Assembly: GCA_963665455.1 (NCBI GenBank)
Contig: OY762279.1
Span: forward strand, 4,443,492-4,507,491
Direction: 5' to 3'
DNA from: Pseudomonadales bacterium
Lineage (GTDB): Bacteria; Pseudomonadota; Gammaproteobacteria; Pseudomonadales; Azotimanducaceae
DNA: 64,000 bases
Shown: piece by piece, positions 6,389 to 63,402 of the stretch
Layout: every line of letters begins with the position of its first letter
Position numbering within the stretch: the stretch's first letter is position 1
The notes under the pieces: generated by a model
The model's input: only the letters and a program-made list of their open reading frames with translations
Databases searched by the model: none
Told to the model about the DNA's origin: nothing
Position numbers and translations under genes: made by a program

Positions 6389-6407
6389 GCCATATCAACG
6401 ATATGGC
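6389..6407. promoter_or_regulatory. inverted repeat, candidate vapBC operator
   Basis: GCCATATC-AAC-GATATGGC: perfect 8-bp arms, 9 nt upstream of the vapB ATG. Confidence 0.3.
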
Positions 6408-6581
6408 GTAACCTTAGCCGTTGATGTCCGTGCACCGCAAGCCCAAGCCCCCCTGCGCGCAGGAGCGGTAACCGAGGCCCTGGCGGCTCCGCTACGAGGC
6501 GAAAGTGTTCATGTTTATCTATCGTAAAACTTGACATACGCGTACCTCCGCAGGCACGTTCGGAACGTCGGAGGAGAGCCC

Positions 6582-7307: not shown

Positions 7308-7416
7308 CGTTGCACGACGTATCGGACACGTACCTGGAGCCAGTCGAGACCACGGCGGACCAACTGGCTCCTCGTTGACCAAGCTTTAAGGACCGCTCAA
7401 TCGCTTACCGCCGCCG

Positions 7417-8490: not shown

Positions 8491-8527
8491 TGGCGTACGT
8501 CCTCCGAAACGTCGTCAAGGAAGTTGG

Positions 8528-10203: not shown

Positions 10204-10238
10204 GGTGTTCTCCGCCTGACCTTCCCCGGGCGCACGGG

Positions 10239-10667: not shown

Positions 10668-10694
10668 GTTCGCCTCCGGTTTCTTACATCGTGT

Positions 10695-11876: not shown

Positions 11877-11888
11877 GTCCGGTCGCCC

Positions 11889-32309: not shown

Positions 32310-33542
32310 CTAACCGTTCGTGCCTCCCAGCGACGCCGGCACGCTCACGATCCCCCCATCGACCAAGTTTCCCAACTCCGTCTCGGAGTATCCGAGTTCC
32401 GAGAGGATCTCCGCCGTATGCTCTCCGAGCAACGGCGCGCCGTGGCGGATCTGCATGGGGGCACCTTCGAATACGGCCGCGTTGCGGGCTTGGCGGAGGC
32501 GTCCCGCGTGGGCGTGCTCGCTCTCGACGAGGATCCCGCTCGCCTGTAGCTGCGGGTGCTCCACGGCCTGGCTGCGCGTCAAGACCGGCGCGCACGGCAC
32601 GCCCTCCGCATCGAGGGCCTCCAGCCATTCGTTGGCGGTGCGGGTGAGCAGCACCTCCTGGATCAACGCCAGCCGCTCGTCCGCGTTCCGGTGGCGCGCG
32701 CCGGCCGACCGGAAGCGCGGGTCGGCGATCAGTTCCGGTTGCCCGGCGGCGCGGCAGAACCCCGCCCACTGGTCGTTGGTCATGGTCGAGATGGTGACGT
32801 AACCGGTCTTCGTCTCGTAGATGAGGTCGATGATCGTGGCGGCCGCCTGGGCCGAGACCTCGCGGTCCAGGAACGTCTGCTCGCCCATGTCCGAGGACCA
32901 CATGAAGGCGACCACGGAGTCGAGCATGGAGAGGCGGATGTGCTGCCCCTCCCCGGTTCGCTCCCGCGCCACCAGGGCACTCGATATCGCCTGCGCGGCG
33001 GTCATCCCCGTCAGCTTGTCCGGCAGGATGGTGCGGATGAGCTTCGGCCGAACGTCGTCCGAGCCCGCCTGCACCGTCGTCAATCCCGACAGCGCCTGGA
33101 TGAGCGGATCGTAGACCGGCTTATGCGCAAACGGTCCCGACTCGCCGAAGCCGCTCATGGAGACGTAGACGATCTGCCCATTCACGGCCCGCAGGGCGGG
33201 TTCGTCGATGCCGAGGCGGGTCATCACGCCCGGGCGGTAGTTCTGTACGAAGACATCGGCCGTCGCGGCGAGACGCAACAGAATTTCGCGCCCCGCATCG
33301 GTGGTGGCGTCCACCGACAGCGAGCGCTTGTTGCGGTTGTTGTTCAGGAAGACGGAATTGAGCTGGGCGGCGCCCTCGCCCCCTCCCCGCGCGAAGTCGC
33401 GGCGGCGTGGACCCTCCACCTTGATGACGTCCGCGCCCTGGTCGGCCAGGATCATCGCGGCGTAGGGACCCGCCACGACGTTGGTGAAGTCGATGACGCG
33501 GATGCCGTCGAGCGGTCCCGCGTACCCTCCCGTGCCCGCCAT
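32310..33542 (-). CDS. family III CoA-transferase (CaiB/BaiF)
   Basis: LDGIRVIDFTNVVAGPYAAMILADQGADVIKVE N-terminal signature; 410 aa. Confidence 0.85.
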   Translation of the reverse strand: MAGTGGYAGPLDGIRVIDFTNVVAGPYAAMILADQGADVIKVEGPRRRDFARGGGEGAAQLNSVFLNNNRNKRSLSVDATTDAGREILLRLAATADVFVQNYRPGVMTRLGIDEPALRAVNGQIVYVSMSGFGESGPFAHKPVYDPLIQALSGLTTVQAGSDDVRPKLIRTILPDKLTGMTAAQAISSALVARERTGEGQHIRLSMLDSVVAFMWSSDMGEQTFLDREVSAQAAATIIDLIYETKTGYVTISTMTNDQWAGFCRAAGQPELIADPRFRSAGARHRNADERLALIQEVLLTRTANEWLEALDAEGVPCAPVLTRSQAVEHPQLQASGILVESEHAHAGRLRQARNAAVFEGAPMQIRHGAPLLGEHTAEILSELGYSETELGNLVDGGIVSVPASLGGTNG

Positions 33543-33548
33543 CCCCGC

Positions 33549-34781
33549 TCAGCCCGCCGCGGCTTCGTGATGTTCGGCGCGGCGCGCCTGTTCTTGGCCA
33601 ATGGCACCCCCTTCGCGCAGCCGTTCTAGCGTGGCGGCATCGAGCCCGAGATCCTCGGCCAGCACCTCGTCGGTATGCTCGCCAAGCAACGGCGCCGGCG
33701 AAATCCCCACGCTGCTCCCCGACATGCGCGCCGGCCAGCCCAGCACCCGGACGCGGCCGTGTTCGGCGTGGTCGAGTTCGTGTACGAAGCCGCGCTCGAC
33801 CAAGTGCGGATCGGAGAACAACTCGTGGGTCTCGAACACCTGGCTCGCGCAAACACCCGCCTCCGCGAACGCGTGCATCGCCTCCCCCTTCGTGCGCCCG
33901 AGGGTCCACGCCGTGATTTCGTCCGTCAGTGCCTCCCGATGCTCGCGCCGCGCATCGGCCGAACCGAACCGAGGATCCTCCAGCAGGCCGGGCTTGCCGA
34001 TCACCCGGCACACCGCCGCCCACATGCGCGGGTTCACCGCCATCAGGAAGACGTAGTCGTTCAATCCACCCGGCGCACAGGGGTAAAGCGCGACGAACGC
34101 GTTGTCGCTGTCGCCCATGCGTGGCGTGGGCTCGTTGCCGAAGTTCGAGTAGGAGATGGCCGTGCGCATGTAGTACGTCATGGCCTCCTGCATGGAGAGC
34201 TCGATAAGCTGCCCCTCCCCGGTACGGAGCTTCTGCGCCCACGCCGCCGAGATGGCGAGGGCCGCCTGCATCCCGGTGCCCGCGTCCCCCATCGTCACGC
34301 CAGGCCGCAGGGGCGGCCCGTTCTGGTAGCCGGTGACGGAGAAGGCCCCCGCCGCGGCCTGGGCGACCATGTCCATGCACTTGTAGTGCGCGTACGGCCC
34401 GCTCGTGCCGAACCCCTTGATGCGCGCGTAGATGATGTCCGGCTTGATCTCGCGCATGACGTCGTAGCCGATGTCGAGCTTCTCCACGACGCCCGGCCCG
34501 TAGTTCTCCACGAACACGTCGTAGTGCGGGACCATCTCCAGGAGCAGCTCGCGGCCGGCGGCGTTGCCGAGATCAATCGTGACGCTGCGCTTGTTGCTGT
34601 TCCAGTTGACGAAGTACTCGGAATCCTTCTCGCGGCCCCACAGCTTCCGTCCCGGGTCGCCCACGTCCGGCTGCTCTACCTTCACCACGGTCGCACCCAG
34701 GAAGGCGAGGGACTGCGTGCAGCAAGTGCCCGCCTCCCACTGGGTCATGTCGAGAATGCGGAGTCCGTCGAGGGCGGCCAT
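33549..34781 (-). CDS. family III CoA-transferase (CaiB/BaiF)
   Basis: LDGLRILDMTQWEAGTCCTQSLAFLGATVVKVE; 410-aa paralog, 6 nt upstream of the previous one. Confidence 0.85.
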   Translation of the reverse strand: MAALDGLRILDMTQWEAGTCCTQSLAFLGATVVKVEQPDVGDPGRKLWGREKDSEYFVNWNSNKRSVTIDLGNAAGRELLLEMVPHYDVFVENYGPGVVEKLDIGYDVMREIKPDIIYARIKGFGTSGPYAHYKCMDMVAQAAAGAFSVTGYQNGPPLRPGVTMGDAGTGMQAALAISAAWAQKLRTGEGQLIELSMQEAMTYYMRTAISYSNFGNEPTPRMGDSDNAFVALYPCAPGGLNDYVFLMAVNPRMWAAVCRVIGKPGLLEDPRFGSADARREHREALTDEITAWTLGRTKGEAMHAFAEAGVCASQVFETHELFSDPHLVERGFVHELDHAEHGRVRVLGWPARMSGSSVGISPAPLLGEHTDEVLAEDLGLDAATLERLREGGAIGQEQARRAEHHEAAAG

Positions 34782-37346: not shown

Positions 37347-38807
37347 TTAGCGGCGAAAGAAGGCCGCTACGCGCGCGTCCTCCACCGGCCGGGTCGTGGC
37401 CGCCACCACGACATAGACGAGGATCGACGCCAAGAGCGCCGGAAACACCTCGTGCAGGTGCGCTTGCCAGCCGAGCAGCAGCCAGCCGACCAACACCGCG
37501 ATCCCCGTTCCGAACGCCGCGAGCGCCGCAGTCTCGCTGCCACGCCGCCAGTGCAGGCCGATCACGACCGTCGGGATGAAGCACACGGCATAGAGGCTAC
37601 CGGAGAAGATGGTGATCTCGACAATGCCACCGGGCGGGTCGAGGGCGACCACGGCCGCCACCACGGCGAAGGCGATCACGCCCGAACGTGTCCAGGCGAT
37701 GGCCGAGCGGTCCGGCAGCGGGCCGAGTTCCATGCGAATGTCCCGCACCACCACGGAGGCGGCGACGAGGAGCACGCTGTCCAGCGACGACATCGCCGCC
37801 GCCAGGATGGCCACGACGAGGAAGTCTCCCACGAGGGCCGGGAACACCCGCGGGTCCGTAACCAAGAGCGGCACGACGAGATCGGTATCCGTCACGCCAT
37901 CGAGCAGGAAGCGCGCATAGAGCCCGACCGGCAGCAGCGAGAACTGCACGACGAGGATGCCGATGCCCGCGATCCACATCCCCGTGTGGATGCTGCGCGC
38001 GTCCCGGAGCCCGTAGAAGCGCGTGACCTGGCGCGGATCCACCAGCAGCTTGAGCGAGCCGGCCAGGGCGATGCCGACGAGGACGACGAAGGGAATGGCG
38101 GCATTCAGTTCCGTGAGATGGGACGTGTCCGGGCGGGTGCCCAGTTCCCGGATGATGCCCACGCCCCCCGCGGCGTGCGTCACGAAGCCGAAGAGCAGGA
38201 GCGCGCCGACGACCATGAGCACGCCCTGGAGTACGTCGGTACGGACCACCGACACGAACCCTCCGAGGGACGTATAGGACATCACGATGACGAGGGTGAT
38301 GCCGACCGCGGCCGGATACGGCACCCCGAGGAACGCCTCGAACAAGTTGCCCGCGCCCTTGAAGATGGCGATCAGGTAGAGAAGGCTGGAGAAGGCGATC
38401 ACCAGCGCGGAGGCGATCCGGACCCGCCGGCTTGCGAAGCGCACGGCGAGGAAGTCCGGCACGGTCACCGAATCCCATTGCGCCGTGAAGCGGCGCAGCC
38501 TCGGCGCGACGAGCCGCCACGACACGAAGGCCATGACCACGAGCATGACGGCCATCGTCAGCCACGGCACGCCGTACTCGTACCCCTTCCCGGCGTGGCC
38601 GATGTAGCTGTTCGTGCTCGCGAACGTCGCGTAGAACGAGACGCCGATGACGACGCCGCCCATGGAACGGCCACCGACGTAGAAGTCGCGGACCGCGCGC
38701 CCACGCCGCATCCCCGCCCGCGCGTGGGCGACGAGGAAGCCTGTGTACGCCGCGAAGAGCGCCACGGCGAACCAGTGCTGCGCCAGCCACGCGGCCGGTC
38801 CACTCAC
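37347..38807 (-). CDS. sodium:solute symporter (SSS) family transporter
   Basis: 486 aa polytopic. ...DFYVGGRSMGGVVIGVSFYATFASTNSYIGHAG is the typical SSS N-terminal region. Confidence 0.8.
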   Translation of the reverse strand: MSGPAAWLAQHWFAVALFAAYTGFLVAHARAGMRRGRAVRDFYVGGRSMGGVVIGVSFYATFASTNSYIGHAGKGYEYGVPWLTMAVMLVVMAFVSWRLVAPRLRRFTAQWDSVTVPDFLAVRFASRRVRIASALVIAFSSLLYLIAIFKGAGNLFEAFLGVPYPAAVGITLVIVMSYTSLGGFVSVVRTDVLQGVLMVVGALLLFGFVTHAAGGVGIIRELGTRPDTSHLTELNAAIPFVVLVGIALAGSLKLLVDPRQVTRFYGLRDARSIHTGMWIAGIGILVVQFSLLPVGLYARFLLDGVTDTDLVVPLLVTDPRVFPALVGDFLVVAILAAAMSSLDSVLLVAASVVVRDIRMELGPLPDRSAIAWTRSGVIAFAVVAAVVALDPPGGIVEITIFSGSLYAVCFIPTVVIGLHWRRGSETAALAAFGTGIAVLVGWLLLGWQAHLHEVFPALLASILVYVVVAATTRPVEDARVAAFFRR

Positions 38808-40636: not shown

Positions 40637-41647
40637 TCAGATGCCCAGCGTGCGGACGACGAAGCGCTGGAACGCGTGCATCGCCCCTTCGCTGTTGCCG
40701 TCAGGATTGTAGATGACCCGGCCCCGGTCGTAGCCGAGGGACGCGAGGCCCTTCTGCACCGACTCGCAGAGCGACTTGTCTTCCCCACCGATGTCGCCCC
40801 AGTCCGGCCGCCACTCCTCCGTGTCGAGTTCCTCGGGCAGCCGGTACACGTCCATCCGGCCCGCGCCCGTGCGGGCCGGGCCCTCCGGAGCGCCGAAGTT
40901 CATGGCGTGGATCGACTGCTTCTCGCGGGTGCCCGAGTTCCAGAACACGAAGCTCGGAAAGAGCGTCCAGAACATCTGCTGGTCCCCATCGGCGCGGCGC
41001 GTTCCGCTCATCTGCTTGGCCCAGAGGTCATGCCCCGTGTAGGTCAGGTCCTCGAAGGTCAGGTCCCGCAGGGAGCCGGGGTGCGCCGGAGGGCAGTGAT
41101 AGCACTCGAGGAAGTTGTCCATGACGATCTTCCAATTCGCCCGGATGGGGAAGTACTCATCGTACCTCTGCTGCAGCGTGCCGCCCCGGCCGCGCATGAT
41201 GATGACGCTCTGGTCGAGCAACTCCGCCGTGATGTAGCCGCCCGGCGTACGCAGATCGCCCACCCAGCCGGCGTACGTCCAGCTCTTGTAGAAGAGTTCG
41301 TGCTTTTCGCGTTCGTAGACGTCGGGGTCGAGATGGGCCCATGCGGGGAGAGAATGGGATCGAGCGGGATCGTCCGTGACCCCGGTGGGCGTAGCGGGCC
41401 TACACCGCACGAGCGTCTGTTCCCAAAGCTCCACCGACATCGGACTAGCAGGGTCCCCGCAGAGGCCAACCAGCTCCTCGATGCGCCCGATGTACTGCTC
41501 CTGAACCGTCTGGCCGACGTACTCGTTCGGCGCGACGAGTCTGATGGTCGACCCGCCCTGCCGAGCCTCAAGCGGACTGATCCACGTGCTGAATTGCTCC
41601 GGCGCAAGCTCGGCCCGCAACCGTGCGAGGCACTCTTCCCACACCAT
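40637..41647 (-). pseudogene. chimeric ORF: DnaA domain I-like N-terminus fused to a ring-hydroxylating oxygenase alpha subunit lacking its Rieske cluster region
   Basis: Residues from ATG 41647, MVWEECLARLRAELAPEQFSTWISPLEARQGGSTIRLVAPNEYVGQTVQEQYIGRIEEL, parallel E. coli DnaA [27 protein letters not shown]...LYAPNRFV. Next comes an RHO N-terminal stub, DPDVYEREKHELFYKSWTYAGWVGDLRTPGGYITAELLDQSVIIMRG. It jumps at about 41170 straight to catalytic-domain motifs ANWKIVMDNFLECYHCPPAHP, with no CxH..CxxH. Confidence 0.5.
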
Positions 41648-41788
41648 CCCCGTCCCCTTGGCCGCAGCAAATCTAGCTCGCCGAGAGTCTCCCAGCCTTA
41701 CCGGCATGTGTCCACAACGACTCAAGGGCGGGCCGATCACGCCCGAACGCGGTGGTGCTATCCGGTATCATCGACTCGCGGCGCGAAC

Positions 41789-41819
41789 ACGAGTCGTCAC
41801 CAAGAGCGAACGAGTCGTC
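41789..41819 (+). promoter_or_regulatory. two 10-bp direct repeats upstream of the PLD nuclease gene
   Basis: ACGAGTCGTC at 41789-41798 and 41810-41819 (21-bp spacing), plus inverted CGACTCG at 41772-41778. These sit 22 nt before ATG 41841. Confidence 0.2.
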
Positions 41820-41840
41820 GCACGACGAGGAGAGAAACGC

Positions 41841-42905
41841 ATGGCCGAACTGCTCGGGAGCGACTTCACCTCGAAGTTCAAGAAGCGTGTGGCGTCGGCC
41901 CGGGAAGTTTGGATTTGTTCGGCATGGATGACCGAAAGCCAGGCTCTGAACGCCTTGGTCAGCCGGAAGCGAGAATGTGCCGTGCGGGTCATCGTCGGCA
42001 TTCGCGGGAACGCAACATCGCCCGACAGCCTGTACAGGCTCGCGCAGGAGTTCGGGTGGGAGAGGGTCAGGATCGCCGATCCACCGGACCGTCTGTTCCA
42101 CGCCAAGCTCTTCCTGTTCCACTACCCCCGACGTCCGACCGTCGCGTGGATTGGCAGCGCCAACTTCACGGGCCACGGAATGGAGGTGAACAGAGAACTG
42201 ATGCTTGAGACCAGCCACAGCAGCGCCGTGACGGCTATGCAGAAGTGGTTCGACAAAGAGTGGGAGGATTGCTGCCCCGATACGGAGGCGGTGGCCGCAG
42301 CGTATCGGCAGCGGTGGACGCCGCCCAACGAATTCAACGGCGACTGGGGCGGCGAGCCAGCACCAGTCGGGCCCCGCCCCCGAACCGGGCCAGACAGGCG
42401 CAGCTTGGTCGACTTGCGGGAAAAGCCGGACAACGGCAAGTGCTACAAATTCAAGTACTTCGGAGAAGACCGCTGGGCGAAATCGCTCGCCGAGATTGCA
42501 CGCAACGTGCTCGTCGCCTTCGGGGACGCTGATCCAGATTTCCTGACAAGGTTCGCGACGAAGGATGACGAGGCGCGCACGGCTCTCCCGAGCGCCACGA
42601 GGCGTTACCTGAGCAAAAGACGCGGGGAGCTGGGCACACAACCGCCAAAGGGTGGGCTACCAAAGCCACATGGGCAATGGCGGATGGCGCAACGCTTGGA
42701 GGAGCACCTCTTTTTTCAGGGTAAATCGCGTCCCGGCATACTAAAGATGGCTTGCGAGGCCATGGACGTAACCTACGGAGAGGGCGACGCAGGGCCCATC
42801 GACTTTCAAAGTACCCAGAGAAGCAAGCCACCCGGATTCGCGGAAGGCGAGGTCATCCTAGTGAAGATCGGAACCAGATCGGAGCGTCACCGGCTAGACT
42901 CTTAG
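41841..42905 (+). CDS. phospholipase D/Nuc-family (single HKD) nuclease with an unassigned C-terminal domain
   Basis: ATG 41841 inside track ORF 41544..42905. FHAKLFLFHYPRRPTVAWIGSANFTGHG is the HxK(x)4D...GSxN motif (42099-42164). The last ~190 aa are unrecognised. Confidence 0.7.
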   Translation: MAELLGSDFTSKFKKRVASAREVWICSAWMTESQALNALVSRKRECAVRVIVGIRGNATSPDSLYRLAQEFGWERVRIADPPDRLFHAKLFLFHYPRRPTVAWIGSANFTGHGMEVNRELMLETSHSSAVTAMQKWFDKEWEDCCPDTEAVAAAYRQRWTPPNEFNGDWGGEPAPVGPRPRTGPDRRSLVDLREKPDNGKCYKFKYFGEDRWAKSLAEIARNVLVAFGDADPDFLTRFATKDDEARTALPSATRRYLSKRRGELGTQPPKGGLPKPHGQWRMAQRLEEHLFFQGKSRPGILKMACEAMDVTYGEGDAGPIDFQSTQRSKPPGFAEGEVILVKIGTRSERHRLDS

Positions 42906-43025
42906 GCGCGGTCCGTTCCTTGCTGCCTAGTGCTAGTGGACGTCCTTGACGCGGCTCTCATTGATGCACAGTCCCACCGAGTCCAGTCCTGACGACGAGC
43001 CCTTTGGACAGTAAGGCTGATCGGG

Positions 43026-43739
43026 TCACGCGTCTCCATCGGGTACCTGTTGATGATCGCGACAGAACTGCCAAAGATAGGCGTCCACCTGCTGCCGGGT
43101 GAGTCCGTGTTCCCGCGCAAGAAAGGTCACCATTTGGTCCGGGGTCGCCGAACACGCATTGGCGCATTGGATGATCCACGTGTCCGCCTTTTCGGTGTCC
43201 TCGATACCGAGAATCAGGGCCAAGTGTTGGCCCGTCGCGGGCCCTATCCAAGGCAACTCCACCAGGGCCGAGCGGCCTCGCTCCACCACACGCTCCCTGA
43301 AGGCGGGCCACCCTTCCGCGTTGATCATTCGGCATCCCTTGAGGAAAGCGTCGGCCTTGGCCTGATTGCGGATCGGTAGCGTCTGGGCGTCCACCCCGTC
43401 CATCGCCACGATCTTGTCCAGATCCAGCTCGTGGAATGCCGCTACGAGGGCAGGCAAGTGCTTGGCCACGACCGCAGTACGGAAACCCGACTCAAAGACC
43501 ACGCAAAGGTAGTCCTCAAGGAAAGTCCTCAGATCCACATCCTCGAACTTGCGAGGCTTGAAGATGTCGTCGCCCACATGCCTGCGAGCCACAGCCAGCA
43601 TCCGGCTTGCCTTGTCCTTGTCCACACGAATCGCTCCCGTGACCGTCGCCGAGTATGGCCCAAAACGCAAACGACCGCTCCCGCCAAGTGAATCCCGCGC
43701 CCGATGGCATCTGCGTGCGGGGGCGTGGGACGGAATCAC
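43026..43739 (-). CDS. helix-hairpin-helix protein, Tag/HhH DNA-glycosylase-like (tentative)
   Basis: LPWIGPATGQHLALILGI HhH motif. The preceding helices (LRTFLEDYLCVVFESGFRTAVVAKHLPALVAAFHELDLDKIVAM...IRNQAKADAFLKG) parallel E. coli Tag LFEMICLEGQQAGLSW...FDPVKVAAM...IIRHRGKIQAII. Start is either GTG 43739 (GTGA overlap with the zinc-ribbon gene) or ATG 43601. Confidence 0.4.
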   Translation of the reverse strand: MIPSHAPARRCHRARDSLGGSGRLRFGPYSATVTGAIRVDKDKASRMLAVARRHVGDDIFKPRKFEDVDLRTFLEDYLCVVFESGFRTAVVAKHLPALVAAFHELDLDKIVAMDGVDAQTLPIRNQAKADAFLKGCRMINAEGWPAFRERVVERGRSALVELPWIGPATGQHLALILGIEDTEKADTWIIQCANACSATPDQMVTFLAREHGLTRQQVDAYLWQFCRDHQQVPDGDA

Positions 43740-44026
43740 GTCTTGTCCGGCAGCCCCTTCGAGATATCCCCCCGGCGATTGATCAGCCGGTCCGGATCCG
43801 CGTCCCGGGTGTTGTGCATCGCCCGGTCCACCATCTTGTCGTACTTGGGATCGAGGCGTTCGAGCTTCGAGAGGTTCGACAGGTGCACCGAGGGGCGGGA
43901 GACGATGCGCCGGGTGCTTTCGCTACCGCAGCGTTCGCACGGATGCGGCGCGTTGGCGCGCGACACCGGGGCGAGCACGGACGTCACCGCCCGGCAGTTA
44001 CTGCAGCGGTACTCGTAGATGGGCAT
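43736..44026 (-). CDS. FmdB-family zinc-ribbon protein
   Basis: MPIYEYRCSNCRAVTSV...HPCERCGS: CxxC..CxxC with the canonical MP.YEY.C start. 96 aa inside track ORF 43736..44419. Confidence 0.7.
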   Translation of the reverse strand: MPIYEYRCSNCRAVTSVLAPVSRANAPHPCERCGSESTRRIVSRPSVHLSNLSKLERLDPKYDKMVDRAMHNTRDADPDRLINRRGDISKGLPDKT

Positions 44027-44046
44027 CCGCCGCCCGCCCGGCGCCG

Positions 44047-44433
44047 TCAGGCGGCGAGTTCCGCTCCCTTGTCGATCAGGGCCTGAATCGAGAGGTGATA
44101 GCGCTCGAACTTCATCTTGTCGAGGACGTTGCGGGAGCTCACGATCTCGCGGTCGGTGTCCAGGGAGAGCAGCGACGGTCCGGTCCCCTTCTTGCGGCGC
44201 TTGAGGTAGTTCGTCCAGTCGCGCGCGGGCATGTCGATGACCAGTTCGACGTCGCGCAGGTCGTCCTCGCCGATCGCCTCGATCATGCCAACCTCGAATG
44301 CCTCCAGGATGACCCTGCGAATCGTCTTGCCGGCCTTGAAGCCGATCACCACGTCCGCGCTGCCGAGTTTCCGGTAGGCGGGATCGACGTTGAGCGCGTC
44401 TCTCGCGCCTTCGAGCCAATCGAGCTGGGGCAT
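44047..44433 (-). CDS. SCP2-like (sterol carrier protein 2 fold) small protein
   Basis: About 128 aa. ...NVDPAYRKLGSADVVIGFKAGK...VELVIDMPARDWTNYL... resembles the SCP2 pattern and the upstream paralog-like gene. Alternative TTG start at 44442. Confidence 0.5.
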   Translation of the reverse strand: MPQLDWLEGARDALNVDPAYRKLGSADVVIGFKAGKTIRRVILEAFEVGMIEAIGEDDLRDVELVIDMPARDWTNYLKRRKKGTGPSLLSLDTDREIVSSRNVLDKMKFERYHLSIQALIDKGAELAA

Positions 44434-44447
44434 GTGTCTCAAGTCCT

Positions 44448-44903
44448 CTAGGCGAACGCCGTCTTCACGCGCGCGGACGCGTCGAAGTAGAACTGCAGCG
44501 TCTGGTTGTAGCGAAAGAAGAGGTCTTCCCGGTATTGGTCCCCGTGCCTCGACGTCGAGAGGCCGTCGTCCCGGTCGAGGTCGAGGCTGTTCAGGGTGTG
44601 ATTCTCCGTGGCGTGGCCATGGTGCTGGATGTCCTCAAGCATCTCCCGCCAGTCCGCCCTCGGCATGTGCATGTAGAAGTCGACCTCGTCGAGCGCGGCC
44701 TCGTCCGCCGCCACGCCCCCCTTGCACTCGGCACCCTCGAAGGTCAGCACGAACACGTCCTCGAGCACGCTCTCGTCCTCGCCCGTGACGACCAGGCCGG
44801 CCGTGCAGTTGCAGTGTCCGCCACCGGCGCCCTGGTAGCGGTCATCGCTGTTGTAGACGGCCGCGACCGCGCCGAACCATGCTTCCGAGGGAAACCTCGC
44901 CAT
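44448..44903 (-). CDS. SCP2-like small protein
   Basis: 151 aa starting MARFPSEAWFGAVAAVYNSDD...CTAGLVVTGED...FVLTFEGAEC...VDFYMHMPRADWREML. The ATG shares one base with the upstream stop (TGATG). Confidence 0.55.
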   Translation of the reverse strand: MARFPSEAWFGAVAAVYNSDDRYQGAGGGHCNCTAGLVVTGEDESVLEDVFVLTFEGAECKGGVAADEAALDEVDFYMHMPRADWREMLEDIQHHGHATENHTLNSLDLDRDDGLSTSRHGDQYREDLFFRYNQTLQFYFDASARVKTAFA

Positions 44904-45934
44904 CACGCGGCTTCCGGCAGGAAGCGCCGCATCTCCTCCGGTATGCGGTCCGCCGCGCGGGGCACGCGCAGCCAATCCCAAACGGCCTCGTAGCGCGCCA
45001 TGAAGTCCCGCATCATGGCCTCCCACGTGGCCATTCCGGTGGTCGCCGCCTTCGCCACGCCGCCCCCGAAGATGACGGCCAACGCCTCGCGGAGGACCGG
45101 GTCGCGGAGTTCCCGCGCAAAGATCCGGTCGCCGATGAAGAGGAGCGTGGCCAACACCTGCGCTTGGGCGTCGACATGCGCGATGGAGTACTTCAGGTGG
45201 TCCAGGGCGTACGCCATGTGCCGCGCGCGGTCCTGAATGACGTGTGCGTAGATGAAGCGCTCCGCGTCGTTGTGCGCGAAGCGTTCGAGGTAGCGCAGGA
45301 TGGTCATCGCGTACGTACCGCGCAGCAGGAACAAGTACGTGACCGCCTCCGTCCAGCCGCCCCGGCTCTCGAGGATCATGCGGTTCACCTCTCCGGGTGC
45401 CTCGAGGCCCAATCCTCCGCCGTTGTAGAGCGCGCGCTTGCGGAACACCTCGTAGTGGCGTCCGGCATCGAACGTGGCGGTCGCGAGGAACTGCTTCACC
45501 TCGTGATAGCCGTAGGCCATCTGATGCTGCCAGGAGGAGATCGTCTCGATGTCCACGTTCGCGTACTGCGAGAGTTCGGTGCACACCTGGCACACCGCGC
45601 GTTCCACGTCGTCGGGAAGAGGCTCGATGGTGTCCCAGGGAACGTCCGTCGCCGGCGCCCAGCGCCGCTGGATTGCCTCCTCGTAGAGGTCCGCCGCCGA
45701 GTCCGCCCAAACCGCCGCCTTCTCCCGAATCGCATATCCGACGGGCGGCATGCCCCGGCGAGGGATCGCACCCCGCGGATTGCGGGTCTGGTCGTTCCAC
45801 TCCGTGGGAATCTCGCCGTAGATGCCAACGTTCAAGCTACCGAGGGTCAGGCCCTTCTTGCCGGGCTTCACCCGCACGCCCCACTGGCGGGACTGGTTCA
45901 TCCAGTCGAACTTGGGGTCCGGCACGGGGGTCAT
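44903..45934 (-). CDS. ferritin-like diiron-protein paralog lacking carboxylate ligands (putative non-catalytic subunit)
   Basis: Paralogous to 46125..47195 (QTxxPRGA, LYEEAIQRRW, TDVPWDTIEPLPDD). The motif positions read DAGRH (45455-45469) and DRARH (45217-45231). Start is ATG 45934 by alignment with the paralog; GTG 46054 is possible. Confidence 0.6.
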   Translation of the reverse strand: MTPVPDPKFDWMNQSRQWGVRVKPGKKGLTLGSLNVGIYGEIPTEWNDQTRNPRGAIPRRGMPPVGYAIREKAAVWADSAADLYEEAIQRRWAPATDVPWDTIEPLPDDVERAVCQVCTELSQYANVDIETISSWQHQMAYGYHEVKQFLATATFDAGRHYEVFRKRALYNGGGLGLEAPGEVNRMILESRGGWTEAVTYLFLLRGTYAMTILRYLERFAHNDAERFIYAHVIQDRARHMAYALDHLKYSIAHVDAQAQVLATLLFIGDRIFARELRDPVLREALAVIFGGGVAKAATTGMATWEAMMRDFMARYEAVWDWLRVPRAADRIPEEMRRFLPEAA

Positions 45935-46081
45935 GAGGTTCGCGCCGTCCGCGGAAACCGTCTCGATCCGTCTCGGCGATGACTTCGCCTGTGCGCGTTT
46001 CTTCGTATGCGAGGGGTTCCCCCTCGCGCTCCCCGGCTGACGGCTCTTGGCCACGTTGTGATACCCGTCCGGTCAGGTTAC

Positions 46082-46108
46082 GGAAAACGCCCGCCGGGAA
46101 GACGGGCG
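46082..46108 (-). terminator. intercistronic GC stem-loop followed by TTTTCC (attenuator or terminator-like)
   Basis: Minus strand reads CGCCCG-TCTTCCCGG-CGGGCG-TTTTCC, 17 nt after the stop of the upstream diiron gene. Confidence 0.3.
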
Positions 46109-46124
46109 CGTGGTGTGTGTTCGC

Positions 46125-47195
46125 CTAGGCGGCTATGTCGGCCAGGATTTCCGGCACCTGCGAGCGGCCGTTGTCGAAACGGTCGCCGAAGCCCGCGCTC
46201 CTGACGCGCTTGATGTACTCGGAAAGCTGCCGGCGGCGGATGGCGATGAGCTTGTTGCGCCCCTCGTCGAAGTGCTGCTTGCCGCCACCGAGCAGGATGG
46301 CCATGGACTCCGAAGTCTGCGGGAACTGTCCCGCCGGGTTCTGCGAACCCGCGAGAATCCCACGCTCCGCCTCGTCGAGGTAGCAGTGGATCTCTTCGTG
46401 GCGTTCCGGCGCCGTCTCGGCCATGTAGCGCATGTGCATGACGCCGAACGCGACGTGGCGCGCCTCGTCCTGGGCGCACAGGCGGTAGATGGCCTTCTCC
46501 GCGTCGTTGTATGCCATCAGTTCGCCCATGCGGAAGATGGTGAGCACGGCGCCCTCGCCGGAGATGTGCAGCCGGGACGACATCTCGGTGAAGTCCCGCG
46601 AGAGGTCGATGCTGCCCACGACGCCCGAGGTGCCACCGGTCGCCTTCATGAGGCCACCGCCGTTGGCGAGCGCGCGCTTGCGGAAGACGTCCATGTGGCG
46701 CGACTCGTCCATCACCTGGCAGAGGAGCACGTTGCGGGCCTCGAAGAAGTCCGGCGTCGTCTGGGCGATCCAGCGCGCCGGCACGTCCCCGGCCACGAAC
46801 TCGACCTCCGTGAGGAAGGTGTCCATCGTGCACTGCGCCTGCTCGATGTCGTCCGGCAGCGGTTCGATGGTGTCCCAGGGGATGTCCGTCGCCGAACTCC
46901 ACTGGCGCTGCAGGGCCTCCTCGTAGAGGAACGAGGCGTTGTCGAGCCAGATCTCGCTCTTCGTGCGCACGGCGTAGTTGCCGATGCGATAGGACCCAGG
47001 CCGCTCCGCCGCGCCCCGCGGGCGGCCCGTCTGGTTGTCGCTCTGCTCCGGCGGATCACCGTAGTCCCCGACCTGGATGTCGGCCAGCGTCAGACCGTAC
47101 TTGCTCTGTTCGGCACGCGTATCCCACTGGCCTTGCTGGTCCATCCAGCCCAAGTCCAGTTCTTGATCGGTTTCGAGCTGAACCGCTTCGCTCAT
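46125..47195 (-). CDS. ferritin-like diiron-carboxylate protein (putative catalytic oxygenase subunit), family unassigned
   Basis: ATG 47195 after GGGGAG. Two complete motifs: E-x33-DESRH (DESRH = 46695-46709) and E-x29-DEARH (46455-46469). Confidence 0.7.
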   Translation of the reverse strand: MSEAVQLETDQELDLGWMDQQGQWDTRAEQSKYGLTLADIQVGDYGDPPEQSDNQTGRPRGAAERPGSYRIGNYAVRTKSEIWLDNASFLYEEALQRQWSSATDIPWDTIEPLPDDIEQAQCTMDTFLTEVEFVAGDVPARWIAQTTPDFFEARNVLLCQVMDESRHMDVFRKRALANGGGLMKATGGTSGVVGSIDLSRDFTEMSSRLHISGEGAVLTIFRMGELMAYNDAEKAIYRLCAQDEARHVAFGVMHMRYMAETAPERHEEIHCYLDEAERGILAGSQNPAGQFPQTSESMAILLGGGKQHFDEGRNKLIAIRRRQLSEYIKRVRSAGFGDRFDNGRSQVPEILADIAA

Positions 47196-47322
47196 GAATC
47201 GCTCCCCAAGGGTGTTCAACGTGACATTTGCCCCAGGCGGTCGCCCCACCGGGCACCGACGGTCGAGGCCCACCAGCCAAGGCAGGTACTATACCCGCCG
47301 GTTCGGGATTCTCAAATAGGCG

Positions 47323-47733
47323 ATGAGCTTCGAGTTGCACCCCCGCCTGACCACCGACTGCGAACGGCTGTGTGAGCTGGGCCTCTCGACGGCCCTGCTC
47401 GCCCGCGACCGGAGGTTTCACTGGGTCATCCTGGTGCCGCGCATCGCCGGCCTACGCGACCTGCACGACGTTCCCGCCGCGCACCGGGCAGCCCTGTTCG
47501 ACGAAATCGAGCAGGTCTCCGCAGCCCTCAAGCGCATCGTGGAGGCCGACAAGATCAACGTGGCCGCGCTCGGCAACCAAGTCCCCCAGTTGCACATTCA
47601 CGTCATCGCGCGCCGCACGGACGATCCGGCCTGGCCGGACCCGGTCTGGAGCGCCCCCGCGGCCGACGCGCCCCTCGCGGGTGCCGAGTTGGCCGCGCGC
47701 GCAACACGCATCAAGGAGGAAATCTCTGCATGA
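47323..47733 (+). CDS. HIT (histidine triad) family protein
   Basis: QLHIHVIAR histidine triad (HxHxH); 136 aa. Confidence 0.8.
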
Positions 47734-47897
47734 AGAAGTGGCAATGCATGACCTGTGGCTTCATCTACGACGAGGCCAAGGGCTACGAGGAGGACGGCAT
47801 CGCCGCCGGGACCGCCTGGGACGACGTTCCCGAGGACTGGCTATGCCCCGAGTGCGGCACGCCCAAGAGCGATTTCGAAATGGTCGAGATCGGCTAG
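47730..47897 (+). CDS. rubredoxin
   Basis: Own translation (55 aa, below the track cutoff): [55 protein letters not shown]. It has both CxxCG knuckles. ATGA overlap with the HIT gene stop. Confidence 0.85.
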
Positions 47898-47910
47898 CGG
47901 AGCACCACTC

Positions 47911-48936
47911 ATGCGCGAGGAGATCGAGCGCATCCTGGAGATGCAGGAACGCGGGGAGTTGACCCGGGAGGAAGCCGCCGCCCGGATCGAGGCGCTGGCC
48001 CGGGAGGCTGGGGGTCGCCGCGAGCGGCCGCGGGGCGCGTTCGACGACCTCGAGCGCTCCCTCGGCAATCTCGGCCGCGAGTTCGGCAACGCGTTCGCGC
48101 GCGCCTCCAAGGGACTCGGGGACGCGTTGCGGCCCGAGACGTGGGTGAACGACAGCAACACCGCAACCTTCTCCCGCACCGAGCTTCCGGAGGGCGAACG
48201 CTTCGAGTGCGAGGGCAACGGCCTGAACCTCGCCCGCGTCGTGCACATGACCCTCTCCGACTCCCGCTTCGTGGACAACGAACTGCATGCCGCCGGCATC
48301 GAGGGCCTCGCCTGCACGCGCGCCGCGTTCACCGGCAACGCCCTGCGGGCCTCCCACGTCGACCGCTTCCGCGTCGAGGACGGCGAAGTCGCGGACAACC
48401 AATGCAACGCCGCGCGGCTCGCCGACTGGCACCTGTCCTGCGCCCGCTTCGAGCGCAACCGGTTGAACGCGACCCAAGCCACCGAGGTCTCCCTGACCGA
48501 CAGCGCCATCCGGGACGGGCGCTGGAACGCCGTGCAGTTGCGCACGCTGGCACTCGCCAACGGCACGGCCTGGGACGGCGTGGGGCTGAACGGGGTCGCC
48601 GGCCGGGATTGGTCCTTCGACGACACCACGCTATCTGCCGTGCGCATCAACGGGCTGCGCATCAACGGCCTCGCGTGCGTCGGCGCTCGGCTGATCCGCT
48701 GCGTCCTACGGCACGGCGACTGGATCCGGGGCATCGATCCCCGCGAACTCGCCACGCTGCGCAACCTGCGGATCGAGAACGCGACCCTCGAGGGATGCGA
48801 GTTCATCGATTGCCGTTTCGACGACACGGCGTTCCGGAACCTCGAGGGGTCGGGCCTCGTGTTCCGGGACGTTGATTTCGGCGGGATGGCGGTGGAATCT
48901 TCGGCGGAGTTGGCGGGCCTCAGCGTGGATTCGTAG
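47911..48936 (+). CDS. SHOCT-like N-terminus plus pentapeptide-repeat/beta-helix protein
   Basis: ATG 47911. EIERILEMQERGELTREEAAARIEAL is SHOCT-like. Long runs of 5-residue-periodic repeats follow (...LEGCEFIDCRFDDTAFRNLEGSGLVFRDVDFGG). Confidence 0.55.
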   Translation: MREEIERILEMQERGELTREEAAARIEALAREAGGRRERPRGAFDDLERSLGNLGREFGNAFARASKGLGDALRPETWVNDSNTATFSRTELPEGERFECEGNGLNLARVVHMTLSDSRFVDNELHAAGIEGLACTRAAFTGNALRASHVDRFRVEDGEVADNQCNAARLADWHLSCARFERNRLNATQATEVSLTDSAIRDGRWNAVQLRTLALANGTAWDGVGLNGVAGRDWSFDDTTLSAVRINGLRINGLACVGARLIRCVLRHGDWIRGIDPRELATLRNLRIENATLEGCEFIDCRFDDTAFRNLEGSGLVFRDVDFGGMAVESSAELAGLSVDS

Positions 48937-49678
48937 GCGGGGCGGGCCCTTCCTCCACAGCCCCCGCAGCAGCCACGTCCTCCCCACCCGCTCGGAGCGC
49001 GTCCGGGACCGACAACTCCTCCCAATCGTCGAACGCCGTTTCCCGCGCTCGGCCGACCAGTTCCAAGCCACGGGAAACGCCCTCGTCGACCACGATCCGA
49101 AGGGGCACCCGCCGCCCGTAGCGTTCACCGAGTTCGAGACGCCCCCGCGACCGCTCCCCGTCGTCATCGACGATGCCGTAGTCGCACCGTTCGACCCCAT
49201 CTGGCGCGACGGCGTGTTCCGTACGCGTCATGGCGTAGTGGTGGCGACCGTTGTTGAGCACCTGTTCGGCGTCGCACCGAACGGTCACCCACAGCGCGGA
49301 CATCAAGTCCACGCCAGGCGGCGCGGGCCGTTCGGGGCGGAGGTTGCCATTGCGTAGCTGCCGCAGAACCCCATCGGCGACGCGAATCGTGCGGTCCTTG
49401 CGCCGGTCCTTCTCGTGCAGCACGAGCGTCTCCGGCACGGCCCGCCCGTCCTCGATGCGGCCCGTCACGAAGAAACGCGCGTTCCACGGCGCGAGGACGT
49501 TCCACACGCCGTGGGTCCGCATCATGCCGCGAACTTCGTAGCGTTCAGCGCCGGATTCGATGCGGACGTAGGCGGAACCGGCGTCCGCCCCGGCGATCAC
49601 GCCGCGGTATTCCAAGTCCAGCGCCTGCCCAGGCAAACCCAGTGCGAGGGGCAGGACCCAGAGCGGCGGTTTGCCCAT
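48920..49678 (-). CDS. DUF3108-like secreted protein
   Basis: Signal peptide, then LDLEYRGVIAGADAGSAYVRIE... pattern. The assignment is tentative. Confidence 0.45.
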   Translation of the reverse strand: MGKPPLWVLPLALGLPGQALDLEYRGVIAGADAGSAYVRIESGAERYEVRGMMRTHGVWNVLAPWNARFFVTGRIEDGRAVPETLVLHEKDRRKDRTIRVADGVLRQLRNGNLRPERPAPPGVDLMSALWVTVRCDAEQVLNNGRHHYAMTRTEHAVAPDGVERCDYGIVDDDGERSRGRLELGERYGRRVPLRIVVDEGVSRGLELVGRARETAFDDWEELSVPDALRAGGEDVAAAGAVEEGPAPPTNPR

Positions 49679-59890: not shown

Positions 59891-61147
59891 CTACTTCATG
59901 CGATAACGGACCGGCAGGCTCTTCAGGCCACCCACGAAGGTAGACTGGGAATAGAGCGGCTCGCCGTTCAGTTCGAAGTCGTCCACGCGCCGGAATAGCT
60001 CCTTGTAGAACGCCCCCATCTCCATCCGCGCCAGATGCTGTCCGAGGCACACGTGCGCGCCGAAGCCGAACGCGAGATGGTTCATGGGCCGGTCGATGCG
60101 GAACTCGAAGGGCGCGTCGAAGGCGGCCTCGTCCCGGTTCGCCGACGGATACCAGAGGACGCAAGACTCCCCTGCCGCGATGTCCACCCCCCCGACCGTG
60201 CAGTCCGCCGTGGCGGTACGCGTGAACTGCCGCACCGGCGACACCCAACGAATGATCTCGTTCAACGCCGTCTGCAGGTGCGCGTCCGGGTCCGCACGGA
60301 AACGGTCCATCTCGTCCGGGTGTTCGACGAATGCGAGCAGGCCCCCCGCCGTCGCCGAACTCGTGGTGTCGTGGCCGGCCGTCGCCACGATCATGTAGTA
60401 GCTGTTGCTCTCGTGCTCGGGCAGCGCCTCGCCGTCGATGCGGGCGTTGGCGATCACGCTCGCCACGTCGTCCGTGGGGTACGCGCGCCGCTGCCGGCTG
60501 AGTTCGGAGAAGTAGTCCTCGAAATCGCGCACGACATCGACCAGCGACATCGGTTCGAAGGAACGCTGGGTGTCCGGGTCCGACGAGCCGAACAACTCCT
60601 GGGTCAGCTTCAGCATCAGCGGCTCGTCGCTCTCCGGGACGCCGAGGATCGACATGATCACCCGCAGCGGATACCACATGGCGATGTCCTTCAGGAAGTC
60701 GCACTCGCCGCCGAGTTCCCCGAGCCGATCCACGTACTCGACCGCGAGCTCGTCGATGCGCCCCGCCAGCCGCCGGAGGTTCTCGCCCCGGAACCACTGC
60801 TGCGTGAGCGCGCGGTATCGGGCGTGGTCGGGATCGTCCATTTGCACCAGCGAGCGGACGAGGTGCCGGCGGCCGACCAATTGCTCCACCAAACCTTCCA
60901 GCATCTTCGGTCCCAAGATCGGGCGCGGATCGTTGATGAAGAGCTTGCTGTCGGCCTCGACCGCCTTGACGTCGGCGTGCCGAGACAGCGACCAGAACGG
61001 GTCGTAGCCATTCGGCGCCATCCGGCGGACGGGATCGTTCGCGCGCAACCACTCGAACTGGGCGTGCACCCAGGCTTCGTCGCCCCAGTTGGCGGTATCG
61101 ACGAGACCGTCGTCGAGTTCGGGGGACTCAGTGAGCACGTCGGGCAT
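59891..61147 (-). CDS. cytochrome P450
   Basis: Heme-binding loop FGFGAHVCLGQHL. ATG 61147 after AAGGAG. Confidence 0.9.
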   Translation of the reverse strand: MPDVLTESPELDDGLVDTANWGDEAWVHAQFEWLRANDPVRRMAPNGYDPFWSLSRHADVKAVEADSKLFINDPRPILGPKMLEGLVEQLVGRRHLVRSLVQMDDPDHARYRALTQQWFRGENLRRLAGRIDELAVEYVDRLGELGGECDFLKDIAMWYPLRVIMSILGVPESDEPLMLKLTQELFGSSDPDTQRSFEPMSLVDVVRDFEDYFSELSRQRRAYPTDDVASVIANARIDGEALPEHESNSYYMIVATAGHDTTSSATAGGLLAFVEHPDEMDRFRADPDAHLQTALNEIIRWVSPVRQFTRTATADCTVGGVDIAAGESCVLWYPSANRDEAAFDAPFEFRIDRPMNHLAFGFGAHVCLGQHLARMEMGAFYKELFRRVDDFELNGEPLYSQSTFVGGLKSLPVRYRMK

Positions 61148-61205
61148 CAGAAACTCCTTTCGCACCATGCTTCCGGGAAACACCGGGCACCTCGCAGGCC
61201 AAAGC

Positions 61206-61265
61206 TAGCGCCCCGCAACCGTCGCCTACGGCTCCGCTCGCGGCCCAGTCCCTCCGGCCTACGCG
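61206..61265. repeat. second copy of the 60-nt REP-like repeat
   Basis: TAGCGCCCCGCAACCGTCGCCTACGGCTCCGCTCGCGGCCCAGTCCCTCCGGCCTACGCG matches 58 of 60 nt of the reverse complement of 51401-51460. Confidence 0.5.
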
Positions 61266-61558
61266 CCCGCGGCGCTGACCACAAGAAGCGTCGTCACGGC
61301 GTCGAAGCCTCGGACACGCTCCGAATAGACGGCCGTGCGCGCCAGTTGCCCAAGTTCCCGGTCGAGCTCCTGTTTGAGCCTCTTCCGCTCTCTGCCACGC
61401 CGAACAAGCGTGTCGTAGGGCTCGGCCAACGCGTACGCCGGAACCCGTAGCTCGATATCACCCCGCTCGGCAAGCTTCAATATCTCGTCGCAGCTATCCG
61501 CCCATCGCTGCAACAAGGCGAGTTCCAGAACGAAGTTCGACTCGACGTAGACCTTCAC
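61259..61558 (-). CDS. hypothetical protein, N-terminal half of a PIN-like fold, apparently truncated
   Basis: KVYVESNFVLELALL...ELRVPAYALAEPYDTL resembles the first two PIN acidic blocks, and the C-terminal blocks are absent. The last codons and the stop lie inside the 60-nt repeat. GTGA overlap with the upstream gene. Confidence 0.35.
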   Translation of the reverse strand: MKVYVESNFVLELALLQRWADSCDEILKLAERGDIELRVPAYALAEPYDTLVRRGRERKRLKQELDRELGQLARTAVYSERVRGFDAVTTLLVVSAAGA

Positions 61559-62040
61559 AGTGCCACTTCATGCTCGACGTGTCCATCGACCACGGCAGCA
61601 CGAAAGCCCGATTCATCTAACCATTCCTGGCCTGCGGCAGCCTGCTCGGGACGACGCCATGTCAGGTCGCTAAACCAACCGGAGACCAGCATCTCGAAGG
61701 CCGGCCCCGTCACGTTGGCAGGGTCGATTCCCGCCCTCTCGAAATAGGGCGCGAACGTCGGCGCACAGTCGGCCTCGTACGTCGGCGGCAGCTCCACGGG
61801 CTCATTGCCCACGTCCTTCCAAACGTAGAGGCGATCCGGAGTGACCATCAAGAAGAAGTCCCATCGGCCCACCAACCCATGCGCCAACATGTTCCGCCGG
61901 GTACGCGCTGCCCACTCGCCGGAGGTATCCCTCAGATTCTTGACTTCGACGACGGCCACCAGTTGACCCTTCCCGTCGTACAGGCCGAGATCCACTCGAA
62001 GCGGCATTTCGTCGATCACCAATCGTTGTCGGTCGGTCAT
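61555..62040 (-). CDS. hypothetical PD-(D/E)XK-like (HsdR N-terminal-domain-like) protein
   Basis: RVDLGLYDGKGQLVAVVEVKN gives a D...E-x-K arrangement; 161 aa. Confidence 0.4.
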   Translation of the reverse strand: MTDRQRLVIDEMPLRVDLGLYDGKGQLVAVVEVKNLRDTSGEWAARTRRNMLAHGLVGRWDFFLMVTPDRLYVWKDVGNEPVELPPTYEADCAPTFAPYFERAGIDPANVTGPAFEMLVSGWFSDLTWRRPEQAAAGQEWLDESGFRAAVVDGHVEHEVAL

Positions 62041-62079
62041 TGTCCGGCGCTCGCCGGGTGGCGGTCAACGTGCGCCCGC

Positions 62080-63333: not shown

Positions 63334-63402
63334 GCGGTTCTCCCCTGCGTGATGCGTGGCGGGAGATTGCCACAGTTGGGGGGCGGGCGGAAAATCGCCC
63401 GA

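Follow-up and report, generated by a model that had tools for sequence, protein, structure and literature searches.

A conserved gene block of Azotimanducaceae and related bacteria encodes a candidate multicomponent dimetal oxygenase with a ligand-deficient paralogue and SCP2-like partners

In the bacterial multicomponent monooxygenases (BMMs), such as the methane monooxygenase hydroxylase MMOH and the phenol and toluene hydroxylases, as well as in PaaA/PaaC, a catalytic diiron subunit with a double E...DExRH motif is paired with a non-catalytic paralogue, and BMM operons also encode small accessory subunits. In other systems a lipid-binding protein passes an isoprenoid or lipid substrate to a hydroxylase, as UbiJ does in the Ubi metabolon and COQ9 does with the diiron hydroxylase COQ7. 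R2lox proteins bind long-chain fatty acids, and haloarchaeal R2lox genes have been reported to lie in clusters with genes for ferredoxins and sterol carriers and to be induced by hexadecane (PMC9314684); a Geobacillus R2lox (GkR2loxI), encoded within a beta-oxidation gene cluster, has been reported to be an alkane monooxygenase on crude-lysate evidence (PMC10867098). VlmB, the diiron azoxy synthase of valanimycin biosynthesis, converts an aliphatic hydrazine into an azoxy group on substrates with aliphatic chains (PMC11705231). Here, we describe a gene block that shares features with each of these systems, located at positions 43736–48936 of a 64,000-nucleotide stretch (the window) of contig OY762279.1 from a Pseudomonadales bacterium (Azotimanducaceae). 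Five co-directional minus-strand genes, running from 47195 to 43736, encode a putative catalytic subunit (alpha), a ligand-deficient paralogue (beta), two small subunits (S1 and S2) and a Cys4 ribbon protein.

We propose, with a probability of roughly 0.55, that this block encodes a soluble multicomponent dimetal (Fe/Fe or Mn/Fe) enzyme, an O2-activating oxidase or oxygenase with a hydrophobic substrate, from an unnamed family related to R2lox and VlmB. The superfamily and its logic, in which a catalytic subunit is joined by a dead paralogue and a hydroxylase by a lipid carrier, are already known, and the R2lox/sterol-carrier/ferredoxin clusters form a partial precedent. What is new is the combination of parts, which has not been described before, together with the lack of a curated model and the failure of alpha to pass the membership test of any named family. 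A literature search returned no paper describing this composition: ferritin-like, SCP2 and diiron together yielded none, and SCP2 with diiron yielded only ubiquinone papers and unrelated lipid papers. An earlier note on this DNA, made from the sequence alone, could name no characterised family with such a composition; we also find none that is characterised, although the R2lox-type clusters, which it did not mention, come part of the way.

The block was compared with two sets of loci. Close relatives were gathered by scanning one genome per species, which gave 263; the best 80 of these, for which the taxonomy is described, are nearly all Pseudomonadales, Gammaproteobacteria or Proteobacteria metagenome-assembled genomes (MAGs), including Candidatus Azotimanducaceae and sponge-associated bins, with one contig labelled Klebsiella that is probably mislabelled. 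The distant set comprises 89 loci from look-ups and a metagenome scan, classified with hidden Markov models (HMMs) of the alpha/beta and S families. Across 83 loci of the close relatives, essentially all of those with enough contig preserve the order alpha-beta-S1-S2-ribbon, and four have a single S gene, which bears out the conservation of the five-gene block that the earlier note had proposed to check, and the order is maintained in about 70 species-level Pseudomonadales MAGs. Identity ranges from 75 to 96% for alpha, the most conserved member, from 54 to 94% for beta and from 33 to 95% for S2. More than 2100 homologues of alpha are present in a 90%-clustered collection, the wider family amounts to 732 representative clusters at 50% identity, and the homolog names on record are only 'ferritin-like domain-containing protein', 'ferritin family protein' and 'hypothetical'. 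With hundreds of homologues repeating both the motifs and the gene order, a chance origin is excluded on comparative sequence grounds.

Alpha (46125–47195, minus strand; 356 residues, with an ATG at 47195, a TAG at 46125 and a GGGGAG ribosome-binding site) carries a set of four carboxylate and two histidine ligands, E132, E164, H167, E214, E244 and H247. A 64-sequence family alignment, in which about half of the representatives are alpha-type and about half degenerate, gives the signature E132 ... D163-E164-x-R-H167 ... E214 ... D243-E244-x-R-H247; position 132 is glutamate in all 30 alpha-type rows, and position 130 varies among alpha-type homologues (E, Q, G, S, T or M). Two complete diiron motifs had been read from the sequence previously, and the full ligand set agrees with this, except that the ligand on the first helix is E132 rather than E130. 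In the predicted model of alpha, which has a predicted local distance difference test (pLDDT) score of 90.7, the ligands lie on four long helices (115–144, 148–176, 202–222 and 231–261). Foldseek, a structural check that the earlier note had proposed, returned R2lox, VlmB, class I R2 and MMOH as the closest Protein Data Bank (PDB) structures, with a probability of 1.0 against R2lox, R2 and MMOH and an R2/MMOH-type fold; template modelling (TM) scores were only 0.43–0.52, so alpha has no close structure. On this model, with the predicted ligands placed in a four-helix bundle, alpha is assigned to the ferritin-like diiron-carboxylate superfamily, R2/BMM/desaturase type.

Searching the PDB with the single alpha sequence gave VlmB as the sole match (E 0.065), and significance needed a profile. 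A profile of diverse alpha-type sequences matched the VlmB homologue 6d9f/8wvr at E 3.9e-13 and R2lox at E ~1e-7, with the six ligands and all four ligand helices aligned to both, including the DEARH and DExRH motifs against VlmB; in the same search, the aldehyde-deformylating oxygenase was marginal and phenol hydroxylase reached E 0.13 over 35 residues. Alpha shares with R2lox the ferritin-like R2-type fold and the aligned ligands, and at the level of gene clustering the haloarchaeal R2lox loci parallel both the window order alpha-beta-S1-S2 and an alpha-S-ferredoxin order found in Acidimicrobiia. Against the R2lox equivalog model NF006200, however, alpha scores 22.7 bits with a cut-off of 194 bits, and an Acidimicrobiia relative (P0130) also falls below it at 44.4 bits; the TM score is ~0.5, and alpha has an N-terminal extension of its own, of ~110 residues, with conserved PRGA and TDIPWDTIEPLPDD motifs. 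We know of no ligand-deficient paralogue that partners R2lox, whose function has, to our knowledge, been open since its first description and whose relatives are poorly understood. Judged by profile and family-model scores, alpha is related to R2lox and VlmB yet a member of neither.

Other named families fit no better. Where the class I ribonucleotide reductase R2 has its radical-site tyrosine, four residues beyond the first histidine ligand (H167 in alpha), alpha has F171, which hardly varies across the family, and PF00268 gave no match. Alpha had no match to PF02332 (Phenol_Hydrox; Pfam, E ≤ 0.1), neither alpha nor beta matched PF05138 (PaaA/PaaC), whose Paa partners are missing from the block, and AurF (PF11583) gave nothing on alpha and 16.6 bits (E 0.0046) on beta against a gathering threshold of 29.6 bits. 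The AurF, PaaA/PaaC, phenol/methane hydroxylase and R2 models, which the earlier note had suggested running, thus claim none of these proteins, and no Pfam or NCBIfam family exceeds its threshold for alpha, beta, S1 or S2. MMOH is among the structural matches of alpha, but the resemblance to the BMMs stops short of membership: alpha has 356 residues compared with ~500 in BMM alpha subunits, and the block lacks an MmoB/DmpM-type effector, a gamma subunit, a reductase and a Rieske ferredoxin, its small subunits having an SCP2 fold instead.

That VlmB is the best profile match raises the alternative of a VlmB-like N-oxidiser, or another small-molecule oxidase of specialised metabolism, in which the S proteins would be merely structural. 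Amine N-hydroxylases such as VlmH have an acyl-CoA-dehydrogenase fold (PMC11705231), and proteins of this class adjoin alpha in 21 of the 89 distant loci, while a distant relative from a cultured organism lies inside a polyketide synthase (PKS) cluster of Burkholderia gladioli. On the other side, identity between alpha and VlmB is ~19%, seryl-transferase, non-ribosomal peptide synthetase and PKS genes are absent from the conserved block, and the block, whose synteny is stable, belongs to the conserved core of ~70 species from a single lineage, which is not how accessory biosynthetic clusters typically behave. VlmB furthermore works with the membrane hydrazine synthase VlmO in a biosynthetic cluster, a partner missing from the conserved block (no VlmO-like gene was noticed there, and no search was aimed at VlmO), and it does so without a beta paralogue, SCP2-fold partners or a ribbon protein. 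We regard this alternative as unlikely.

Beta (44903–46054, minus strand; 383 residues) is 38% identical to alpha (E 4e-65) and has lost all four carboxylates, the corresponding positions being A, A (within DAGRH, 45455–45469), G and R (within DRARH). It retains both histidines as well as D163, R166, D243 and R246, and the two histidines and these second-sphere D/R residues vary little or not at all between alpha and beta types. A paralogue with its histidines kept and its four carboxylates lost is what the earlier note had described; its first position is A and not Q, and of the motif positions given there DESRH (46695–46709), DEARH (46455–46469) and DAGRH are correct, whereas DRARH lies at 45218–45232, one base away from 45217–45231. 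The GTG start at 46054 and the 'AKS...' N-terminus are backed by homologues, in which both the start and the tail that follows it are conserved. This N-terminal tail of ~40 residues (45935–46054) is basic, low in complexity, rich in K, A, P and S and variable in length; in close relatives (loci L004–L012) AKSPQPGSARGNPSQ occurs in it singly or repeated in tandem up to three times, and in others there are AAKP-like runs. Such basic tails are known from polyanion- or granule-binding proteins.

The small subunits S1 (44448–44903, minus strand; 151 residues) and S2 (44047–44433, minus strand; 128 residues, from an ATG at 44433 that is common to homologues, a TTG at 44442 being discarded) are paralogues that can be aligned over their full length (E 2e-6). 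For the predicted model of S2 (pLDDT 94.3), the ten best Foldseek matches in the PDB all have the SCP2 fold, with E values from 1e-3 to 0.07; they include UbiJ-SCP2 (E 1e-3), AF1534 (TM 0.59–0.65) and human SCP2. A combined S1 and S2 profile found Thermus thermophilus SCP2 as its best, weak PDB match (E 0.1), and neither protein matched the SCP2 sequence family (PF02036 and relatives) in Pfam or NCBIfam. As modelled, S2 has an SCP2 fold, and its paralogy with S1 suggests an SCP2-like fold for the latter, so that the two SCP2-like proteins of the earlier note stand at the level of fold, with no backing from sequence families. UbiJ, the best structural match of S2, resembles it in fold only (14–18% identity) and partners flavin monooxygenases; with respect to COQ9 and COQ7, alpha is unrelated to Coq7 and the block has no link to ubiquinone genes.

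S1 is marked by the motifs FPSxxWF ... HTLNxLDL ... DLFFRYNQTLQ. Window-type S1 proteins also have a conserved GAGGGxCxC motif (residues ~25–34, window 44800–44830) that is absent from S2; at the matching position a distant S1 (locus L084) has CSC, and those of types II and III, defined below, are mostly without cysteines. On visual inspection, the product of a gene upstream of L084 alpha resembled a canonical SCP2, but it had no Pfam, NCBIfam or PDB match and was not used.

The wider family falls into four architectures. Type I, to which the window belongs, has alpha, beta, one or two S genes and the ribbon gene, the ribbon preceding S in two loci; S2 is a duplicate specific to this window-type operon. 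Type II has the order S, alpha, beta, followed by a gene for a secreted 165-residue protein (L118, L129) and by an ABC exporter (L117, L118, L120, L129). Type III, from Acidimicrobiia, consists of alpha, an S1-type gene and a 2x[4Fe-4S] ferredoxin with a C-terminal Cys4 segment, often with an acyl-CoA dehydrogenase upstream. In type IV alpha stands alone, accompanied by PhnD-like binding proteins, an acyl-CoA dehydrogenase and sometimes a TusA fusion. By the S profile, an S1-type protein lies beside alpha in 35 of the 89 distant loci, spanning three architectures and several phyla, and these proteins share FPSxxWF, HTLNxL and FFRYNQTLQ across phyla; this cross-phylum linkage is the strongest sequence evidence that S is a true partner of alpha. 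From cultured organisms only very distant relatives are known, among them, besides the Burkholderia gladioli protein, one encoded beside FdxA on a Rhodococcus opacus plasmid.

A rough neighbour-joining tree (L114, L117, L118 and L120 against the window and L122–L126) places type II alpha and beta as sister groups and shows type I beta branching deeply. The type II duplication may therefore be independent of that of type I, and the duplicated subunit may have lost its ligands at least twice; the tree is crude and was not relied on.

The last gene of the block (43736–44026, minus strand; 96 residues) encodes the FmdB-type CxxC...CxxC ribbon that had been recognised earlier, and it exceeds the cut-offs of both PF09723 (50.2 bits; cut-off 34.4) and TIGR02605 (54.1 bits; cut-off 31.3). 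Its tail, SKxERLDPKYDKMVDxAM, is strongly conserved, and the gene is present in 74 of the 83 related loci, always inside the block. This fixed membership is compatible with a ferritin-like iron-handling protein or peroxide/O2 scavenger, an analogue of a split rubrerythrin in which the ribbon would serve as a rubredoxin-like Fe(Cys)4 centre. Rubrerythrins join a diiron four-helix bundle to a CxxC...CxxC domain, and in one type II relative the neighbouring genes are nifEN and nifQ, a setting in which protection from O2 would be plausible. Yet alpha, with 356 residues and an R2/R2lox-type fold, is not a short rubrerythrin or ferritin bundle, systems of this kind have no use for a ligand-deficient paralogue or for SCP2-fold partners, and the ribbon matches FmdB rather than rubredoxin models and is missing from types II to IV. 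A scavenger of this kind seems to us quite improbable. Homology between the C-terminal Cys4 segment of the Acidimicrobiia ferredoxin and the window ribbon was also considered, but a ribbon HMM found no similarity, and the parallel is one of position only. The type II block of L118 (positions 2616–12362; noted together with L129) has a nitrogenase NifE/N-type gene, nifQ and a DsbA-like gene immediately upstream.

The arrangement of the five genes suggests a single transcription unit. The beta stop and S1 start overlap in TGATG at 44903, and spacers of 14 nt and 20 nt separate S1 from S2 and S2 from the ribbon gene; the alpha-beta gap, by contrast, is 70 nt, so that the very short junctions of the earlier note apply to the downstream genes, while its five open reading frames (ORFs) and their strand were borne out on re-checking the sequence. 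Were the genes merely adjacent and not one functional system, shared synteny would account for most of the flanking-gene conservation in the window clade, but it would leave unexplained the overlap and the 14–20-nt spacers, the recurrence of alpha/beta pairs and of the alpha-S linkage across phyla in three gene orders, and an in-frame S2-ribbon fusion in one record. Mere adjacency is accordingly a very remote prospect. The fusion, a metagenome protein of 227 residues (P0302), could be natural or reflect a lost stop codon.

Upstream, a sigma-70-type promoter-like element (TTGAGA-16 nt-TATAGT, 47288–47315, minus strand) lies ~90 nt before the alpha start. It is the sole promoter-like site in 5.8 kb, where 0.4 were expected, and seven close relatives show no change in its hexamers or in most of the spacer, while their flanks diverge and contain indels. 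In the 70-nt gap, directly past the alpha stop, a hairpin with a T-run (46088–46104, minus strand) could act as an attenuator of read-through into beta; terminator-like hairpins were no more frequent than in shuffles of the region scanned. An Rfam search of 43500–49000 returned a single match, within the beta coding region and below threshold (25 versus 58.6 bits), which we took as chance; being sub-threshold, it offers no riboswitch clue to the ligand.

The source of electrons bears on a further alternative, in which the enzyme is a rubredoxin-dependent oxygenase with the rubredoxin facing it as its obligate, dedicated donor. The divergent intergenic region measures 127 bp, as had been noted, and beyond it lie, on the plus strand, genes for a HIT-family protein (47323–47733; PF01230, E 6e-15), which is a divergent neighbour not shown to belong to the system, a genuine rubredoxin of 55 residues (47730–47897; PF00301, E 4e-21) and a pentapeptide-repeat protein (47911–48936; Pentapeptide_4, PF13599, 41.6 bits, cut-off 38). 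These agree with the HIT, rubredoxin and pentapeptide-repeat genes of the earlier note; the SHOCT domain that it placed at the N-terminus of the last protein falls below its cut-off (18.9 versus 27 bits). Rubredoxins are established donors for AlkB-type non-heme iron hydroxylases. The rubredoxin gene is, however, present in just 8 of the 83 related loci, all with an alpha identity of at least 88%, relatives have a ferredoxin (Acidimicrobiia) or FdxA (Rhodococcus opacus) nearby instead, and the scan of window genes turned up no rubredoxin reductase. The rubredoxin-fed enzyme of the earlier note is not supported by this comparison, since the link is not conserved, and we consider an obligate rubredoxin donor improbable. 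Both the rubredoxin and the pentapeptide protein, whose gene is present in 6 of the 83 loci, are lineage-specific neighbours, the former a possible local electron donor.

For the multicomponent dimetal enzyme that we favour, alpha would be the catalytic subunit and beta a non-catalytic structural paralogue, most likely paired with it. S1 and S2 would dock on this alpha/beta core and either deliver a hydrophobic substrate of alkyl, acyl or isoprenoid type or serve as an effector subunit, and the Cys4 ribbon protein would be an accessory subunit for docking, assembly or electron entry. Electrons would enter from a donor outside the conserved block, which in the window lineage could be the adjacent rubredoxin and in the Acidimicrobiia relatives would be the dedicated 2x[4Fe-4S] ferredoxin, encoded downstream of S in 13 loci. 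The formation of such a complex, its O2 chemistry and the electron route are all inferred, as is a lipid-like substrate presented by SCP2-fold proteins. We favour a hydrophobic or acyl substrate because, in different subfamilies, the block has acyl-CoA dehydrogenase (the neighbour in the 21 distant loci above), enoyl-CoA hydratase and alkylsulfatase-like (L130) and family III CoA-transferase (L126 and the window) neighbours, and because of the R2lox precedent, with its fatty acids, sterol-carrier and ferredoxin clusters and reported alkane monooxygenase. Other single loci contribute a luciferase-like monooxygenase (L125) and an alpha/beta hydrolase (L121).

Several observations weigh against this interpretation. 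No member of the family has been characterised by experiment, and the nearest characterised relative, VlmB, carries out N-oxidation and not C–H hydroxylation. The SCP2 call comes from one AlphaFold model (TM 0.44–0.65, E 1e-3 at best) and a weak sequence match, and the most conserved stretch of S1, DQYREDLFFRYNQTLQ, is polar and aromatic and suits a protein interface no less than a lipid pocket. The conserved block contains no reductase, no ferredoxin and no established electron carrier. Conservation of the flanking genes in the window clade reflects the shared synteny of one family-level lineage, and the themes of the neighbouring genes differ by subfamily, with nif genes at L118 and PhnD-like binders and the TusA fusion in type IV, so that the substrate may vary across the family.

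More specifically, and only tentatively, we propose that the block represents a new class of soluble dimetal enzymes, hydroxylases or desaturases that act on long-chain hydrophobic compounds (alkanes, alkyl or acyl chains, isoprenoids) and in which an SCP2-fold subunit would be integral, ancestral and substrate-delivering. Such enzymes would be widespread among Acidimicrobiia and among uncultured Gammaproteobacteria of marine or sponge-associated origin; within this proposal, the pairing of a catalytic subunit with a ligand-dead paralogue may have arisen more than once. Should the substrate prove to be a hydrocarbon or lipid, abundant uncultured lineages of marine bacteria and sponge symbionts would possess a way of oxidising lipids or alkanes aerobically that has gone unrecognised, and the family would also provide a new enzyme scaffold with a lipid-carrier fold integrated in a dimetal oxygenase. 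Quite apart from this proposal, a large family with thousands of sequences has no Pfam or NCBIfam model, and its fixed partners (the dead paralogue, the SCP2-fold proteins, the Cys4 ribbon or ferredoxin and, often, beta-oxidation-type enzymes) are handles for reconstitution.

Several genes around the block recur in relatives. HIT lies within 7 kb in 45 of the 83 loci, often ~3 kb away and often with a DUF3604 gene between it and alpha. The DUF3604 protein (850 residues) is encoded divergently beside alpha in 35 of 80 related genomes and is missing from the window; examples between HIT and alpha are L014, L016, L018, L022 and L056, with others in L119, L124 and L087, the last of these 7 kb from a distant alpha/beta pair. 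HIT, DUF3604, an SSF transporter and family III CoA-transferases (in the window at 32310–34781) were considered as members of the system and set aside, their recurrence being mostly within one syntenic lineage.

Two genes at ~41544–43739 separate the ribbon gene from the syntenic SSF transporter (37347–38807). A 237-residue ORF abuts the ribbon stop, and beside it lies a gene for a PLD-like protein (PLDc_2, 26.8 bits, slightly below the cut-off); because the 237-residue ORF has no counterpart in any of the 83 related loci, the pair looks like a local insertion. A further ORF (40637–41740, minus strand) combines the N-terminal domain of DnaA (PF11638, E 1e-15) with the catalytic domain of the alpha subunit of a Rieske ring-hydroxylating oxygenase (PF00848, E 1e-21) in a fusion that lacks a Rieske domain; it may be chimeric, or a pseudogene bordering an insertion. 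Finally, a cytochrome P450, a luciferase-like monooxygenase and a TauD-family dioxygenase, with no established link to the block, are encoded 11–15 kb from it (59891–63999, minus strand).

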